5,078 nt of DNA, taken from a virus (taxonomy: Duplodnaviria > Heunggongvirae > Uroviricota > Caudoviricetes). Shown piece by piece: positions 1-5,078 of this stretch. The notes below the pieces were generated by a model. That model worked only from the letters and a program-made list of their open reading frames with translations, had not been told where the DNA came from and searched no databases. Each line of letters starts with the position of its first letter. Position 1 is the stretch's first letter. The stretch lies in the IMG/VR virus record IMGVR_UViG_2671180275_000003; one strand, given 5' to 3'. Both the position numbers and the translations under genes were made by a program.

Positions 1-246
1 CATTGCGTACTCAGCCCGTGCGCCAGCGGACTCTTCCCATCCATCCAGTAAGTAAATGGCATCGGCACACATGAGCATCGGAATACAAATGCTTATGTAC
101 TGCTGCTGGCTTAATCCGTCAGGCAACGTGGCAGGGTTCAGCACAACGTGCCCGTCTTCCGCGAGCCTCATCGCCTCTATGAAAAACGCCGTTCTGTTGT
201 GATCTTTGTATCCGGTCATTGGACCGGCGATATAAATCACTGCCAT
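1..246 (-). CDS. DUF4406-like (nucleoside 2-deoxyribosyltransferase-like) phage protein, partial; C-terminus lies beyond the window start
   Basis: Own translation of the - strand from ATG at 246..244 gives MAVIYIAGPMTGYKDHNRTAFFIEAMRLAEDGHVVLNPATLPDGLSQQQYISICIPMLMCADAIYLLDGWEESAGARAEYAM with no stop before position 1. The IAGPMTG and CDAIYLLDGWEESAGA motifs are as recalled for DUF4406. Strong SD (GGGAGGT) 5-6 nt upstream. The ORF track listed only a shorter unrelated + frame here. Confidence 0.6.
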   Translation of the reverse strand, partial: MAVIYIAGPMTGYKDHNRTAFFIEAMRLAEDGHVVLNPATLPDGLSQQQYISICIPMLMCADAIYLLDGWEESAGARAEYAM

Positions 247-455
247 GCTTTACCTCCCGTATTGCGTGTTGCTGTCAGCACGCGTACTTCTTCCATGTTC
301 GTGGCGCAGAAGTGCGAACCGTTGATAAGGCGGATGTGATGCATCTCAGAATTGCGTGAGTCCTGGCGTGTCATGCCCTGGTCAATCAGGCTTTCGTCGA
401 CTTCGTACTGATGGCCGTGGGTTGTGAATCTGATAACGGTTGACTCCTTGATCAT
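237..455 (-). CDS. Hypothetical small phage protein (72 aa)
   Basis: ATG start with SD AAGGAG 8 nt upstream; start overlaps the stop of the upstream gene in an ATGA arrangement (452..455); its 3' end overlaps the DUF4406-like start by 10 nt. No recognisable motif. Confidence 0.5.
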   Translation of the reverse strand: MIKESTVIRFTTHGHQYEVDESLIDQGMTRQDSRNSEMHHIRLINGSHFCATNMEEVRVLTATRNTGGKAWQ

Positions 456-688
456 TGCTTGACTCCTTGCCCGGCAGATTTACCGTGGAGTAGCTTTTTA
501 AGGGCGGCGATTTCTCTTTCCTGATCCTGAATCACCCGGATTGCTTCCATGGTGATCCCCAGTGAGATCGAGGAAGATATAACGACCTTTGGTTTTCCAA
601 CGGCAGCTGCAACTTTGGCTGTTTCCTCGTGAGCACGGGCGATGTGACGTAACCCCCGCAAAAGTGCTTTGTTTCTTTCGCTATTCAT
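452..688 (-). CDS. Hypothetical small phage protein (78 aa), predicted helical/coiled-coil C-terminus
   Basis: ATG start preceded by AGGAG; ATGA stop/start overlap with the next gene downstream; same strand and tight packing as neighbours. No recognisable motif. Confidence 0.55.
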   Translation of the reverse strand: MNSERNKALLRGLRHIARAHEETAKVAAAVGKPKVVISSSISLGITMEAIRVIQDQEREIAALKKLLHGKSAGQGVKQ

Positions 689-723
689 TTCCTGACTCCT
701 GTGTTACTGATTCATCTGTTTAT

Positions 724-1704
724 TCACGTACTGGCAGGGGTAAACATCACGCAGTAAGTTGCATCTCCCGTTACCGGTCCGCAGTCCGGGCAGTAGCCAC
801 CGCCATGGCGACCGCAGGCGTCGCACTGTTTCAGGGTGGCGATAACCTCCGGTGCTGGTTCGCGGGTTCTTGCGCCAACGCTTCGTGGTGCCTGTATGCA
901 GTTCATCCGGTAACCCTGATAAATACGTCTGGTTTCCGGTGTGTCGGAATTGGAGATGGTGATTCTGGTCATGCCGCCCGTTTCCTGCGAAAGGCGGTCA
1001 AGTGCTGCCCTCAGGCGAACGTGCTCGTGTTCATCGAATGGTTTTCCGTAGGCGGTGAAATTGCCCTCGCCACTGAACCGCAGGTAAGGGGGATCGCAGT
1101 ACACGCAAAGCGTGTTGCCCATGCCGAACAGGTGACTGGCAGAGCTCAGCGTATCCTTAAAATCTGCGTGGATAAGCAGCGTTTGGGTGCTGTTTGCCTT
1201 GTCTGCAAATGCGCGGATTTCCCGCTCAGGGAAGTAGGGTTTTCGGTAGCCGCCGAAAGGCACGTTAAAATCACCTTTTCCGTTCACCCGGTACAGGCCA
1301 TTAAAACAGTGCCGGTTGAGGTACAAAAACATGGCGGCCAGTCGCAGTTCACGGCGGTCGCTTATTCCCGTTCTGCTACTCAGGAAGGCATGATTCTCTG
1401 CGTTAAAGGTTTCGCGAATGATGAGATAGTCACCCCTGTTGTTGTGGTTCAGGAACAGGGTTTTCGCCTCGTCGATCAGACTGTCGGTGTTGTCCCGTGC
1501 TGCCCGCCAGAAATTAATCAGCGCACCATTGGAATCACCCAGGATGTAACGCTTGTAACTGGTGTTCATGAATACCGATGCGCCACCCACGAACGGTTCA
1601 ACCAGGCAGTCAGCTTCTGGCAGATGCGCCTTCAGTGTGTTCATGATGCGGCTTTTGCCACCCACCCATTTCAGCGGTGTGCCGGATAACAGTTCTTTGC
1701 TCAT
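724..1704 (-). CDS. dam: Dam-family N6-adenine DNA methyltransferase (probably GATC-specific) with a ~55-aa Cys-rich C-terminal extension
   Basis: 326-aa product with LKWVGGK and CLVEPFVGGASVF (AdoMet-binding region), LFLYLNRHCFNGLYRVN...FNVPFGGYRKPYFPE, catalytic DPPY (VYCDPPY) and NFTAY, all close to E. coli Dam. SD AGAGG 8 nt upstream; ATGA overlap with the upstream ORF. C-terminal tail has CDAC...CPDC plus two further Cys. Confidence 0.9.
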   Translation of the reverse strand: MSKELLSGTPLKWVGGKSRIMNTLKAHLPEADCLVEPFVGGASVFMNTSYKRYILGDSNGALINFWRAARDNTDSLIDEAKTLFLNHNNRGDYLIIRETFNAENHAFLSSRTGISDRRELRLAAMFLYLNRHCFNGLYRVNGKGDFNVPFGGYRKPYFPEREIRAFADKANSTQTLLIHADFKDTLSSASHLFGMGNTLCVYCDPPYLRFSGEGNFTAYGKPFDEHEHVRLRAALDRLSQETGGMTRITISNSDTPETRRIYQGYRMNCIQAPRSVGARTREPAPEVIATLKQCDACGRHGGGYCPDCGPVTGDATYCVMFTPAST

Positions 1705-1928
1705 AACGCGGCCTCTTTGTTATAGGTTTCGTGCGTTAATAAATCCCATGACTTCCCGTTGTTTTTGCTCAGTAATCGCCAGCGAAAACCGATTCTTATT
1801 ACCAGGTAGTCGTGGGGTTTTATACGTGAAAAATTCCGCACGCCGTCGCGGAATAAACGCAGCGATGCGCGGGCTTTTCTTTCCACGTTCAGGGGGAGGC
1901 AGCAACACACATTCAGGATGGCGGCCAT
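1701..1928 (-). CDS. Hypothetical small protein (75 aa)
   Basis: ATG at 1928 with SD GAGGTG 6 nt upstream (the SD overlaps the exonuclease stop); stop overlaps the dam start as ATGA (1701..1704). Low-complexity sequence with no known motif; a competing 62-aa frame (1720..1908) exists, so confidence is moderate. Confidence 0.4.
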   Translation of the reverse strand: MAAILNVCCCLPLNVERKARASLRLFRDGVRNFSRIKPHDYLVIRIGFRWRLLSKNNGKSWDLLTHETYNKEAAL

Positions 1929-1937
1929 GGCTTCACC

Positions 1938-2519
1938 TCATATGTTCAGGAATGGTGTTGTGAAGCGCTGCCAGATTTCTGACACGACCTTTGCCTGGTA
2001 AACGGCGTCGCCCAGCGCGGTGTGAGCAATGGTCTCTTTGCCTGATCGGCCTGGCATTCTCCAGCCGGTTGATTCAGCCATGGCGATAAGCGGACGCATA
2101 CAGCGCTCGTCCCAGTAGCACCAGGGGATGCTTTTTTCTCCGGCTGTGCGTGTTATGGCGGATTTCAGGATTGGGAAATCGAAGGATGCGCCTTTGCACC
2201 ATATGGTCAGTGAATTGCCCGGGCTTTCGTCATGCATATTGCGTGAAATGAACGCCAGAAATTCGGTCACTGCTGCCAGCTCTGTTCCATCTGCGTTGCG
2301 CAGGCAGGCTCTGGCTTCCACGGATTGTCCGGCCCACCATACAGCGGTGGCTGCATTGACGGTTCCGCCGTTGCGTTCTGAATCCACCGGGTCGATGAAT
2401 TTCTCAAACTGCTTGCCCAGCTTTCCGGTGAACGGGTCGAAAAACACCGCCCCGATCGCGAATATGGCTGCGTCCGGTCCGTTACCCAGTGTTTCGGTGT
2501 CAATCATGAGATGGTTCAT
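1938..2519 (-). CDS. DnaQ-like DEDDh 3'-5' exonuclease (the type annotated as exonuclease/exodeoxyribonuclease in enterobacterial prophages)
   Basis: Exo I motif MIDTETLG, central FDFP acidic motif, Exo III motif HTALGDAVYQA (H-x4-D). The track start at 2528 is GTG; I prefer ATG at 2519..2517 (193 aa), which overlaps the upstream stop as TAATG and has AAGGGG about 8 nt upstream. Confidence 0.8.
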   Translation of the reverse strand: MNHLMIDTETLGNGPDAAIFAIGAVFFDPFTGKLGKQFEKFIDPVDSERNGGTVNAATAVWWAGQSVEARACLRNADGTELAAVTEFLAFISRNMHDESPGNSLTIWCKGASFDFPILKSAITRTAGEKSIPWCYWDERCMRPLIAMAESTGWRMPGRSGKETIAHTALGDAVYQAKVVSEIWQRFTTPFLNI

Positions 2520-2749
2520 TATGCGCACCCCTTCAGTTCGTCTGGGTTGGCGAGTATTGCAATCAGTCGTTCAATGGCTGCGCAGGTTTCCTGTGGACAG
2601 GTGTGTGTCTCTTTCGCTGTCTCAGTCAGCTCGCGCAGTAATTCGCAGATATGCGCACGCTCGGCTTTTCTTGCGGCCATGCTGATATGTGCATGATGGT
2701 TAGCTGGTCTGGCGGTTATTTTTCTGCCGGGTGATTCGGCTGTTCTCAT
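2519..2749 (-). CDS. Hypothetical small protein (76 aa from ATG; track version uses a TTG 8 codons upstream)
   Basis: Track ORF 2519..2773 begins at TTG; the in-frame ATG at 2749..2747 has a canonical AGGAG 7 nt upstream, so I place the start there. Four Cys residues, no recognisable domain. Its stop overlaps the exonuclease ATG. Confidence 0.5.
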   Translation of the reverse strand: MRTAESPGRKITARPANHHAHISMAARKAERAHICELLRELTETAKETHTCPQETCAAIERLIAILANPDELKGCA

Positions 2750-2783
2750 TTGTTGACTCCTGAAAAAAGACAAAGGGAACCCG

Positions 2784-2799
2784 AAGGCATGAATGCCTT
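2784..2799. other. Short hairpin (6-bp stem AAGGCA/TGCCTT, 4-nt loop) in the untranslated gap between the mini-ORFs and the 76-aa gene
   Basis: Inverted repeat read directly; not followed by a U-tract on either strand, so not a canonical intrinsic terminator. Confidence 0.25.
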
Positions 2800-2849
2800 A
2801 ATTAATTGCTCGTGTGTTTTCTGGTGTTATTCCGCGCCTGCTTTCGGCT

Positions 2850-2951
2850 TCAGATTATCCCCAGATTCTTCAGTGCTAACCAGATAAGCGCACTCACCTG
2901 AAATATCACCCATGCAGTAGCGATGGTGAGTATTACTTTTACATTCTTCAT
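2850..2951 (-). CDS. Candidate mini-ORF, 33-aa hydrophobic peptide (MKNVKVILTIATAWVIFQVSALIWLALKNLGII)
   Basis: Found by manual translation; below the ORF-track size cutoff. Single predicted transmembrane helix. Starts 12 nt after the stop of the preceding mini-ORF; no clear SD, so weakly supported. Confidence 0.25.
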   Translation of the reverse strand: MKNVKVILTIATAWVIFQVSALIWLALKNLGII

Positions 2952-2963
2952 AAAGTTTTCGCT

Positions 2964-3089
2964 TTATTTACGGCGTTTGTCGCCAGTAAAAAATAATTCG
3001 ATATCCTTCAGTTCGTGGATAATTCGCATAATGCCGATTGCCATAAGCACGGAGATAATCAGAATTACCCATGAAAGAAATATGCTCAT
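2964..3089 (-). CDS. Candidate mini-ORF, 41-aa single-pass membrane peptide (MSIFLSWVILIISVLMAIGIMRIIHELKDIELFFTGDKRRK)
   Basis: Found by manual translation; ATG overlaps the stop of the 80-aa gene as ATGA (3086..3089); SD-like AGGGG 8 nt upstream; hydrophobic core followed by a basic tail, typical of small membrane peptides. Confidence 0.45.
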   Translation of the reverse strand: MSIFLSWVILIISVLMAIGIMRIIHELKDIELFFTGDKRRK

Positions 3090-3328
3090 GCGGCTACCCC
3101 TGTGAAGTAAGGCTCAACAATTTCACCTTCAAACAGTTCTGTCATAATCGACTTTAATTCTTCCAGCGCTTCACGGTCATCGCTGCCCAGTGCGCAGTTG
3201 TATAGCCCCATAATTGCGCCGCGCAGTGAGTTACGAAGGCTTTCATCCTTAGTTACGCCCCGGTTTGCGAGTTCAAAGTGATAACGTTGCAACGCGTTAT
3301 TGATAAGTATTTTGTAGGCTTCGATCAT
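3086..3328 (-). CDS. Hypothetical small protein (80 aa)
   Basis: ATG with SD AAGGA 7 nt upstream; 18-nt gap from the preceding gene; stop coupled to the 41-aa mini-ORF. No recognisable motif. Confidence 0.55.
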   Translation of the reverse strand: MIEAYKILINNALQRYHFELANRGVTKDESLRNSLRGAIMGLYNCALGSDDREALEELKSIMTELFEGEIVEPYFTGVAA

Positions 3329-3346
3329 GGCTGAATCCTTTATTTA

Positions 3347-3682
3347 TCAGTGCTTGCTTCCCGGATATTGAAAACGCAGGCCGCTGATTAATCTGTCTGC
3401 CGTTCTTAAGGCTTCAAAAAATGTGAAGTCCTGTCCGAAGTAATCATCCCCGCGAGTCAGGGTGAAATTAAATCTGCCAGTAACAGGGCTGCGAAAACTT
3501 TTGTGAATAACGATGCCAGTGTCGCCAATCGCCCAGGTGTGCTTTCCGGTTTGTTTTACCGGGTGACCGTCTGGTGTGGTATGGATTTCAGTGGTTGCGG
3601 TCGCACTATTTTTACGGAAGTGCTGGCGTGCAACGTGGCGTTCGGTGTTGTTATTGATGCGTGCATTTCGTTGTTGCTTCAT
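3347..3682 (-). CDS. Hypothetical protein (111 aa)
   Basis: ATG at 3682, same strand and tight spacing as the operon; basic N-terminus, no motif I can assign. Confidence 0.55.
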   Translation of the reverse strand: MKQQRNARINNNTERHVARQHFRKNSATATTEIHTTPDGHPVKQTGKHTWAIGDTGIVIHKSFRSPVTGRFNFTLTRGDDYFGQDFTFFEALRTADRLISGLRFQYPGSKH

Positions 3683-3707
3683 TCTTCACTCGGTCCTTAT
3701 GCGATGA

Positions 3708-3902
3708 TTACAGTGATTCGTCTCTTGTCAGCCTAAAAATCACTTCAGCCATGACTTCGCTAATTACATCGATCCCCTGATCGGTAAGGGCTTCTTTCCA
3801 GGCCTTGCTTGCACGTGTTGGATCCATCCTGCCTGATTGCTGTTGTATGATGATGAAGCGTAAATCGCTGTATAAGTCTTTTGTTTGAGTGGAGTCAGTC
3901 AT
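3708..3902 (-). CDS. Hypothetical small protein (64 aa)
   Basis: ATG at 3902 with SD GAAGGTG 5-6 nt upstream; second gene of the leftward operon. Confidence 0.5.
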   Translation of the reverse strand: MTDSTQTKDLYSDLRFIIIQQQSGRMDPTRASKAWKEALTDQGIDVISEVMAEVIFRLTRDESL

Positions 3903-3953
3903 GTCAACACCTTCAAATCCCGATGCTCTTAATGATCCCGGTTTGTTTTGATG

Positions 3954-4478
3954 TCACTGGTTGCCTTCGCTGTATTGGTGTTGCTCCAGTTTTGACTTTC
4001 TTCCTGTGTAAACCCGCTTTCCATTGATGGTCTGGCAGTCTTCTTTGTTTGCCGGGGAAAACTTTCTTTTCTGTCGGTCGTATGTCCAGTAGCTTTTCCA
4101 GTTGTGCCATTCTGGCGGCTCGCATTCTGGTAGTTCGTCAGCCAGCTTGTCCCACTCTCTGGCGTTAAACCACCACACGCCATCCGAATTTTCATCTTCA
4201 GGGTTTGAACGGGTCTTGTGTCCAGGCATCTGATTTCGCTGAAGCGCCACGCGCAATGCAGCTTTTGTCAACCCGATATAGGCTGCCCCTTTTTCAAGTG
4301 AGCAAAGTCCGGCTACCGGGCCATCCAGTCGCAAGGTTGCCCCTTTTTTGTAGGTGCGTTTTTTCTTTTCCTCTTGGTGTTCATCGTCGTTTGCCGCGCC
4401 AACGGATTCGGTGATGCTGTCGTTTTCCTGAAGGGCTTGTGTGTCAGATAACTCTTTATCGGCAATTGACTTCCGCAT
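3954..4478 (-). CDS. Cox/Apl-like HTH DNA-binding protein (candidate excisionase/early-promoter regulator), 174 aa as drawn
   Basis: First gene of the operon facing the repressor. Central segment GAAYIGLTKAALRVALQRNQMPG...DGVWWFNAREWDKL has the HTH-then-aromatic-wing pattern of P2 Cox / 186 Apl. ATG at 4478 with SD AGAGGA 6 nt upstream. Acidic ~48-aa N-terminal and ~55-aa C-terminal extensions are atypical; an internal TTG (4334..4332) with AAGGGG upstream is an alternative start. Confidence 0.6.
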   Translation of the reverse strand: MRKSIADKELSDTQALQENDSITESVGAANDDEHQEEKKKRTYKKGATLRLDGPVAGLCSLEKGAAYIGLTKAALRVALQRNQMPGHKTRSNPEDENSDGVWWFNAREWDKLADELPECEPPEWHNWKSYWTYDRQKRKFSPANKEDCQTINGKRVYTGRKSKLEQHQYSEGNQ

Positions 4479-4538
4479 TTGCTATCCTCTTGCGTTGGTG
4501 CGCTTGTCGCGCATCATGAAGGTTTGTTTAGGTTTATA

Positions 4539-4562
4539 AAAGATACTCGTGCGAGTATCTTT
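4539..4562. promoter_or_regulatory. Candidate operator: perfect 11-bp inverted repeat AAAGATACTCG-tg-CGAGTATCTTT
   Basis: Perfect palindrome read directly from the sequence, centred in the 104-bp gap between the divergent Cox-like and repressor genes. A related half-site AATACTC lies at 4574..4580. Confidence 0.5.
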
Positions 4563-4582
4563 CGCGAGAGGTTAATACTCAA
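4554..4582 (-). promoter_or_regulatory. Candidate early (lytic) promoter: -35 TTGAGT (4582..4577), 17-bp spacer, -10 GATACT (4559..4554)
   Basis: Hexamers found by eye on the - strand; the -10 falls inside the right arm of the palindrome, the usual geometry for a repressed promoter. Not experimentally anchored. Confidence 0.3.
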
Positions 4583-4924
4583 ATGGTTATCTTGTCAATA
4601 GACTATGCAAAAAAGCTACGTCAAATACGCAAGGCTGAAGGGCTAACGCAAAAGGAATTTGCGGATATTACGGGGTTGTCTTTAGCTGCCATAAGGAACT
4701 ATGAATCAGGGCAAAAAAGCGCCAGAGCCAAAATTGTTGAGATGGTTCTCCAAGTTGATCGGTTTGAAAAATACATGATGTGGCTAATAAAAGATAAGAC
4801 AATGCCTGCTGCCGGTCAGATAGCCCCGGCTCTCTCTCTTGATGGCTCCATTCAGTCGGAGGGCGATCAGGTTTCAATCGGCATTACCCAAAAATCACCC
4901 CGATCTCGTCGCAATGCTGGCTAA
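4583..4924 (+). CDS. Phage immunity repressor candidate, HTH-XRE family (P2 C-type by size and context), 113 aa
   Basis: N-terminal HTH LTQKEFADITGLSLAAIRNYESGQK; C-terminal KYMMWL...GQIAPAL resembles what I recall of P2 C; sits directly upstream of the integrase on the same strand; AGAGG 12 nt upstream of the ATG. Confidence 0.75.
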   Translation: MVILSIDYAKKLRQIRKAEGLTQKEFADITGLSLAAIRNYESGQKSARAKIVEMVLQVDRFEKYMMWLIKDKTMPAAGQIAPALSLDGSIQSEGDQVSIGITQKSPRSRRNAG

Positions 4925-4993
4925 CGCTGTACATCGAGCGGGTTTCATCCCGTAGAGAGTGTACGGCTGATTCATCCGTTGGAGGGGCTAATC

Positions 4994-5078
4994 ATGTCGA
5001 TTAAGCAACTCAAAGACGGGCGTTATAAGGTTGATGTAAGACCGCAAGGGACGGAAGGAAAGCGGATCCGTAAGATTT
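4994..5078 (+). CDS. int: Tyrosine integrase, N-terminal 28 codons only (P2-type); continues beyond the window
   Basis: MSIKQLKDGRYKVDVRPQGTEGKRIRKI closely parallels the P2 Int N-terminus as I recall it (MAIKKLDDGRYEVDIRPTGRNGKRIRRKF). Strong SD GGAGG 8 nt upstream; no terminator between repressor and int. Confidence 0.7.
   Translation, partial: MSIKQLKDGRYKVDVRPQGTEGKRIRKI

Follow-up and report, generated by a model that had tools for sequence, protein, structure and literature searches.

A conserved early-gene module and an optional cargo gene beside the Cox-type switch of a P88-like Escherichia coli prophage

The genes described here are encoded in a 5,078-base stretch of viral DNA (IMG/VR record IMGVR_UViG_2671180275_000003, hereafter the window), which is almost certainly the immunity and early region of a P88-like Escherichia coli prophage (Xuanwuvirus, P2 family, Peduoviridae). 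Three adjacent minus-strand open reading frames (ORFs) form the promoter-proximal part of its early lytic operon: orf64 (64 residues, 3708-3902), a 111-residue gene (3347-3682) and an 80-residue gene (3086-3328). The products of the second and third are members of the Pfam families DUF4761 and DUF4754, respectively. Together with a 41-residue single-pass membrane microprotein (tm41, 2964-3089, minus strand), they constitute a conserved, vertically inherited core module that is independent of immunity type, whereas orf64 belongs to the optional cargo of a hotspot slot that separates cox from the DUF4761 gene. The block is typical of such phages rather than strange, since two of its genes are already catalogued and part of a conserved module, and the third, an accessory gene of rare occurrence, occupies a cargo slot. 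All three are real genes, with no function assigned.

Comparison of related loci reveals the extent of this conservation. The set comprises 83 loci anchored on DUF4761, made up of 80 IMG/VR contigs together with Escherichia albertii, Salmonella and one probably contaminated 'Vagococcus' contig. DUF4754 is encoded in 82 of them and a 37-41-residue tm41-like membrane microprotein in 81; with DUF4761 present throughout, the three genes represent a core module rather than a variable block. Their order (Cox, DUF4761, DUF4754, transmembrane (TM) protein) is constant downstream of at least three different Cox types. Both the window and phage P88 share this arrangement, which allows an optional gene after DUF4761 and runs on the strand opposite to the C repressor and integrase genes. 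Furthermore, the C/Cox cassette is set apart from the module by mosaic breakpoints at 3935-3941 and 3645-3647, and the module is thus independent of immunity. The sequence-only reading of this DNA had treated the three genes as a single variable block; comparison of relatives bears this out for orf64 (10/83 loci) and overturns it for DUF4761 (83/83) and DUF4754 (82/83).

In the exceptional type represented by L094-L096, an 80-residue protein with weak full-length similarity to DUF4754 (hhalign E=2e-4) is followed by a 61-residue TM protein. A second optional slot lies in the interval between DUF4761 and DUF4754, where a homologue of P88 gp05 is encoded in 63 of the 83 loci but is absent from the window. 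The P88-like prophage family as a whole is carried by at least 2% of complete E. coli genomes. Locus L007 (NZ_JBQPOM010000071.1), labelled as the Gram-positive 'Vagococcus sp. WN89Y', contains a typical enterobacterial P88-like prophage early region and is probably a contamination or a mislabelled assembly.

The three ORFs lie where they had been placed from the raw letters, all on the minus strand, between the Cox-like gene (3954-4478) and the mini-ORFs at 2964-3089 and 2850-2951. Each was also credited with an ATG and a reasonable Shine-Dalgarno sequence. The ATG is present in all three, and the ribosome-binding site is good for orf64 (GAAGGTG, 6 nt upstream of the ATG) and for the 80-residue gene (AAGGA, 7 nt upstream), but weak for the 111-residue gene (AAGGA 11 nt upstream, then GAG/AAG). 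This weak site and the small size of the ORFs are the features that could make them spurious frames arising by chance in intergenic or regulatory DNA. However, median pairwise dN/dS, computed on unique homologues from the fetched loci, is 0.12 for the 111-residue gene, 0.13 for the 80-residue gene and 0.21 for orf64 (0.19 for tm41), and every pair within each of the three genes falls below 1. All three are under purifying selection, and all three are annotated as coding sequences in the RefSeq prophage of E. coli STEC2018-607. Matches to Pfam and PHROG families far above threshold, synteny kept across divergent phages and confident cores in the AlphaFold2 (AF2) models argue in the same direction. 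Judged on conservation at the sequence level, the chance-frame explanation is already refuted, and we give it practically no weight.

The P88-like identity of the window follows from its 98.1%-identical P2-type counterpart and from the Pfam and PHROG matches of its proteins. The window aligns over its full length, at 98.1% DNA identity, with the STEC2018-607 prophage, which adjoins dmsABC and encodes P2-family capsid, terminase, tail, lysis and replication-endonuclease (gpA) genes. Among isolated phages, P88 and its relatives come closest, with DUF proteins 41-53% identical to those of the window. The minus-strand operon encodes, in order, Cox, orf64, DUF4761, DUF4754, tm41, a second hydrophobic ORF (tm33), an 84-residue ORF, a 3'-5' exonuclease, a ParE-like protein, Dam and further genes, while the plus strand carries the helix-turn-helix (HTH) repressor C (4583-4924) followed by the beginning of the integrase gene. 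The earlier description of the three genes as early, uncharacterised and situated just past a P2-type C/Cox switch is therefore accurate.

P88 (NC_026014) provides the closest point of comparison among isolated phages. Its gp04, gp06 and gp07 are homologous to DUF4761, DUF4754 and tm41 (51%, 42% and 73% identity), follow Cox in the same order and show the same 4-nt overlap between the last two genes. Unlike the window, P88 has neither orf64 nor tm33 and carries an extra 92-residue gp05 (phrog_3800) between DUF4761 and DUF4754; its gene functions are likewise unassigned. At the nucleotide level, megablast matched the block to none of 50,697 phage records, and sensitive blastn against phage records returned Cox/C and short DUF matches only. 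Scans of Rfam and NCBIfam gave no match. Searches by sequence, profile and fold assigned no function to any of the three genes and found no homology to structural or housekeeping phage proteins, in line with the suggestion that the block holds uncharacterised activities. Searches of the PDB by sequence and profile yielded nothing, or designed helical repeats only, which were discounted as a composition effect. A literature search found no paper on DUF4761, DUF4754 or these genes and none of relevance on P2-like early operons, anti-defence in Peduoviridae or fil/dhr of 186, and the P88 and Xuanwuvirus papers it returned are genome surveys only.

The strongest clue to function is positional and comes from sister lineages. 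In SEN5-like and other P2-like phages, a short, core-only DUF4761 of 68-78 residues is encoded directly after Cox; it aligns to residues ∼42-104 of the window protein and lacks the basic N-terminal tail. Among the 64 loci of this kind (L101-L164), an overlapping homologue of the phage 186 Fil protein comes next in 53, followed by a Dhr homologue; L008:3483-4208 is a further locus of this comparison. SEN5 gp40 and related proteins, annotated as hypothetical, are homologous to Dhr (33% identity, E=2e-7). The GenBank record of 186 describes fil with 'overexpression blocks cell division' and dhr with 'inhibits host DNA replication'.

A few of the short-DUF4761 loci carry DUF4754 in place of Fil. 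L155 and L156 encode, after the short DUF4761, a DUF4754 protein (Pfam E=8e-6), then a 79-residue protein with two TM segments whose gene overlaps that of DUF4754, and finally a Dhr homologue (L155:2012-2965). Similarly, L157 encodes a short DUF4761, a DUF4754-like protein (hhalign probability 87.5%, E=4e-6) and an overlapping 69-residue TM protein. No locus contains both Fil and DUF4754, and no Fil homologue was found in the window or in any P88-type locus. These gene orders, together with the lack of co-occurrence, indicate that the place of Fil is taken by DUF4754 together with a membrane microprotein. The analogy with fil and dhr of 186 drawn in the sequence-only reading is accordingly apt by position, as Fil follows short DUF4761 in most loci of that type and the DUF4754-TM pair precedes Dhr in L155/L156.

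These positions suggest a module for early host takeover that acts at the inner membrane, a reading whose functional part is drawn from position only and which we consider possible, though somewhat short of probable. The module would be expressed once the C repressor is lifted, and its target would be the host rather than phage DNA. The acidic three-helix DUF4754 protein would be made together with tm41, and the pair, at the inner membrane, could be a non-homologous functional substitute for the Fil division inhibitor of the sister lineages, blocking division or another envelope process during early lytic growth. DUF4761, the constant partner encoded upstream of either Fil or DUF4754 plus TM protein, may be an adaptor or a regulator, small and basic, whose ligand would be either nucleic acid or a conserved target in the host, and orf64 may be an accessory modulator expressed first (anti-defence or host factor). 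Small early phage proteins that arrest host division, some with a single TM helix, include SPO1 gp56 and lambda Kil. Their likeness to the window module is a mechanistic analogy only, with no sequence relationship expected.

Several observations weigh against this proposal. Positional replacement is no proof of equivalent function, because unrelated genes are assembled as mosaics in P2-like early regions. The counted loci stem largely from closely related prophages and do not represent independent events. The pairing of DUF4754 with a TM protein is not universal, since loci of the L158/L159 type encode a DUF4754-like protein with no adjacent TM gene. The structure model of DUF4754 is based on four near-identical sequences. 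Moreover, neither the module proteins nor orf64 resemble Fil, Dhr, a Kil-type inhibitor or any other characterised protein in sequence, profile or fold, and the basic disordered tail of DUF4761 would fit nucleic-acid binding, and hence a regulatory or replication role, equally well.

Direct comparison with the 186 and P2 early proteins defines the limits of the likeness. A Pfam scan of ten window proteins, including the products of the three genes, tm41 and tm33, gave no Fil match at E<=1, and neither did tblastn of three Fil proteins against the window. BLASTP (word size 2) against the early proteins of P2, 186 and P88 recovered homology to P88 gp04, gp06 and gp07 only; nothing better than E=0.07 was obtained against cII, fil, dhr, tum, B, orf78 or orf80-83. 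Like the window genes, 186 fil is a small early-operon gene just past the switch, and its slot is the one filled by DUF4754 and a TM protein in L155/L156. Unlike the window pair, Fil is a single soluble protein rather than a soluble DUF4754 with a TM microprotein, and the two share no sequence or profile similarity. The dhr gene of 186 belongs to the same promoter-proximal early segment, and its homologues follow Fil in SEN5-like loci and the DUF4754-TM pair in L155/L156; by contrast, no Dhr homologue is encoded in the window or in P88-type loci.

DUF4761 (3347-3682, minus strand; pI 10.7) matches PF15958 with 101.3 bits (gathering cutoff 27; E=3.8e-29) over profile positions 4-99 of 105, as well as phrog_2492, a function-unknown family (E=1.8e-34). 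Likewise, the 80-residue protein is a Pfam DUF4754 member, so the earlier statement that none of the genes shows an assignable motif, while understandable from raw sequence, is incorrect. Structurally, the AF2 model of DUF4761 consists of a disordered basic tail (residues 1-30), five predicted beta-strands (41-86) and a C-terminal helix (88-99). The resulting beta-meander-plus-helix core has no significant fold match in the PDB or BFVD. The tail is rich in Arg, Lys and Asn, with an invariant E-R motif and, after it, an H that is nearly invariant. The first ∼12 residues are hypervariable because the junction between immunity cassette and cargo falls inside the 5' end of the gene.

These features also bear on a different view of the module, in which its proteins are developmental regulators: DUF4761 would bind nucleic acid in the place that cII holds in the 186 order apl-cII-fil-dhr, or aid replication or antitermination, with DUF4754 and tm41 as modulators. 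DUF4761 always comes directly after the switch and the cargo slot, much as cII sits between apl and fil in 186, and its high pI and Arg/Lys/Asn-rich disordered tail, with the invariant E-R and nearly invariant H, would suit such a role. In addition, no recognisable gpB homologue is encoded in this region of P88-like phages. However, DUF4761 carries no HTH or other DNA-binding signature and resembles none of CII, P2 B and the N-type antiterminators. The genes for 186 CII and for P2 orf78-B likewise follow directly on Apl or Cox, but there is no homology, and the proteins differ in kind: CII is a 169-residue HTH activator and P2 B a 166-residue helicase-loading factor, whereas the DUF4761 core is a 70-residue beta-meander with a helix. 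The basic tail is absent from the short SEN5-like forms and is therefore not essential to the family, and the retention of DUF4761 across different C/Cox cassettes argues against sequence-specific action at the switch. Finally, the operon strand has no convincing terminators downstream. On balance, a developmental role is unlikely, with some chance left to it.

Three narrower ideas about DUF4761 and its surroundings were tried and set aside. Derivation of the N-terminus of its long form ('ETHATPDGH') from Fil ('ETPDGHFFKP') was rejected, since hhalign of DUF4761 with Fil gave a probability of 3.6%. Interpretation of the tail as an N-like arginine-rich antiterminator was dropped, given its absence from the short forms and an operon strand without convincing terminators. 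A hairpin after tm33 (∼2786-2801) was not supported as a tR1-like terminator, with a z-score of +0.6 and no adjacent U-run.

DUF4754 (3086-3328, minus strand; pI 4.7) matches PF15946 with 58.2 bits (gathering cutoff 27; E=1e-15) over profile positions 3-77 of 80, as well as phrog_2549, also function-unknown (E=1.8e-28). In the AF2 model it folds as a generic bundle of three helices, and its floppy C-terminal tail carries a conserved G..I.PY motif. Assignment of DUF4754 as a RecA modulator of the DinI/Tum type was rejected: Pfam DinI is not matched and the model is all-helical. The sole signal in that direction is a 35-residue BLAST match between DUF4754 and the Tum C-terminus (E=0.07). Some E. 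coli copies (P0031, P0032) are frameshifted after residue ∼43 and encode 57-residue products, a sign that the gene may occasionally decay in resident prophages.

For tm41, which completes the module, the start overlaps the DUF4754 stop by 4 nt (ATGA) in both the window and P88. Its TM helix is nearly invariant across the 81 loci that encode it (MSIFxSWxxLIISVxxAIGIMRII) and is more conserved than its soluble partner. A tblastn search of INPHARED found tm41 in 12 phage records, in all 12 of which DUF4761 is also matched, as is DUF4754 in 11. Next to tm41 lies tm33 (2850-2951, minus strand), a lineage-specific 33-residue hydrophobic ORF that is conserved in 9/83 loci and unannotated in the RefSeq twin from STEC2018-607.

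Such small membrane proteins are typical exclusion factors, and tm41, aided by DUF4754, could instead block the entry of competitor DNA (superinfection exclusion) or tune holin triggering (lysis timing). The high conservation of the TM helix, above that of its soluble partner, and the presence of a second small hydrophobic ORF alongside would be consistent with either role. However, the genes belong to an early operon under repressor control rather than standing where lysogenic-conversion genes do, the lysis cassette lies well apart in the late region, and no homologue among the known Sie, Imm or antiholin proteins was found. We therefore regard exclusion or lysis timing as very unlikely compared with host takeover at the inner membrane.

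orf64 (3708-3902, minus strand), the first gene after Cox, encodes a small acidic protein (pI 4.65) and is the accessory member of the block. Its family is an orphan that shares the conserved motif QQxSGxxDxTRA...F, with no match in Pfam, PHROG, NCBIfam, PADLOC or the PDB, and tblastn against the 50,697 phage records also gave none. Besides the 10 of 83 DUF4761-anchored loci, it was found in 12 IMG/VR contigs and in 20 of 5426 complete E. coli genomes (0.4%), and a profile search of 1.84 billion representative proteins returned three clusters in all. Two copies of the cassette reside on the STEC2018-607 chromosome (NZ_CP075697.1; 857933-858170 and 4385835-4386029), implying that it carries two P88-like prophages.

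The gene travels on a mosaic segment of ∼290 bp (3646-3937) that comprises orf64 and the first ∼12 codons of DUF4761. Homology with relatives in blastn ends at 3935-3941, just past the Cox stop, and at 3645-3647, within codon ∼12 of DUF4761. The two positions are recurrent mosaic breakpoints of recombination that bound the orf64 cassette. For instance, L016 matches the window over 1-3645 and 3938-5078, with different cargo in between. The interval between cox and DUF4761 ranges from ∼60 to 1420 nt among relatives L005-L089 (e.g., L012:2280-3055, L016:2033-3036 and L005:2635-4054), and in the window the spacer between cox and orf64 spans 3903-3953. At least eight alternative orphan genes occupy this slot on both strands; four of them match function-unknown PHROG families and none has a significant Pfam match. 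The cargo includes a 68-residue protein with two TM segments (phrog_14475), a 149-residue antisense gene (phrog_2266) placed head-to-head with orf64 in L012, L039 and L058, families of 131-202, 140, 151 (phrog_28512) and 86 residues, and an antisense family of 60-75 residues.

A distant homologue of orf64, P0044 (93 residues), is encoded upstream of Cox in a different type of P2-like prophage, which adjoins cpxP (L098:4622-5581). Its neighbours are an 86-residue gene and a 62-residue antisense gene, both with relatives, identified by eye, in the P88-like cox-DUF4761 slot. It thus seems that these small cargo genes move as a group around the switch of different P2-like phages.

The behaviour of orf64 raises the possibility of anti-defence, in which one or both of the small acidic proteins, mainly orf64 and also DUF4754, would neutralise restriction, RecBCD or an abortive-infection sensor as soon as the early promoter fires, by analogy with promoter-proximal Ocr, ArdA and Acr proteins. 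In favour of this are the position of orf64 immediately after Cox, its sporadic and rare distribution, its small size and acidity, the diversity of orphan cargo on both strands of its slot, and the presence of a homologue in another P2-like prophage, within its immunity region. On the other hand, the window proteins have no match at E<=0.01 in PADLOC-DB, a library of defence-system rather than anti-defence proteins, nor do they match known inhibitor structures, and no defence-system partner was identified. DUF4761 and DUF4754, as core genes under strong purifying selection, are also unlike typical anti-defence genes with their fast turnover. Anti-defence is hence a minority prospect, and mostly one for orf64.

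A wider form of the takeover proposal would join these strands, although we think it improbable as a whole. DUF4761 would be the constant subunit of a P2-family takeover cassette whose effector is interchangeable, being either Fil or a hitherto unrecognised two-part system in which DUF4754 and its translationally coupled TM microprotein arrest division or another envelope process, and the cox-DUF4761 slot would be a third, undescribed P2-like hotspot for orphan anti-defence or defence genes. If the inference about the membrane pair is correct, DUF4754 and its microprotein would offer a new, sequence-unrelated phage route to stop host division or remodel the envelope, and DUF4761 would be a shared partner worth structure-function study. 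The cox-proximal slot is a compact place to mine for host-interaction or anti-defence genes. As they stand, the results mainly give a defined genomic context to two DUF families and one orphan gene.

The remaining features of the window concern the operon and its switch. Within the early operon, a 75-residue ORF (1701-1928, minus strand) overlaps the Dam start and contains a ParE-like toxin domain (PF24732, E=3.7e-18), with no antitoxin-like neighbour recognised beside it. The first early-operon gene (3954-4478, minus strand) encodes a 174-residue Cox-like regulator/excisionase that matches phrog_23196 (E=2.7e-120) and falls just below the cutoff of Pfam Phage_Cox (E=1.4e-5; 25.3 bits against 27.5). 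Among relatives, this gene is swapped as a cassette together with C and int. The C/Cox intergenic region contains a perfect 11+11 palindrome, AAAGATACTCG-TG-CGAGTATCTTT, at 4539-4562, with a partial third copy at 4575-4593. The 4539-4562 palindrome is a likely candidate for the repressor operator over the early promoter.

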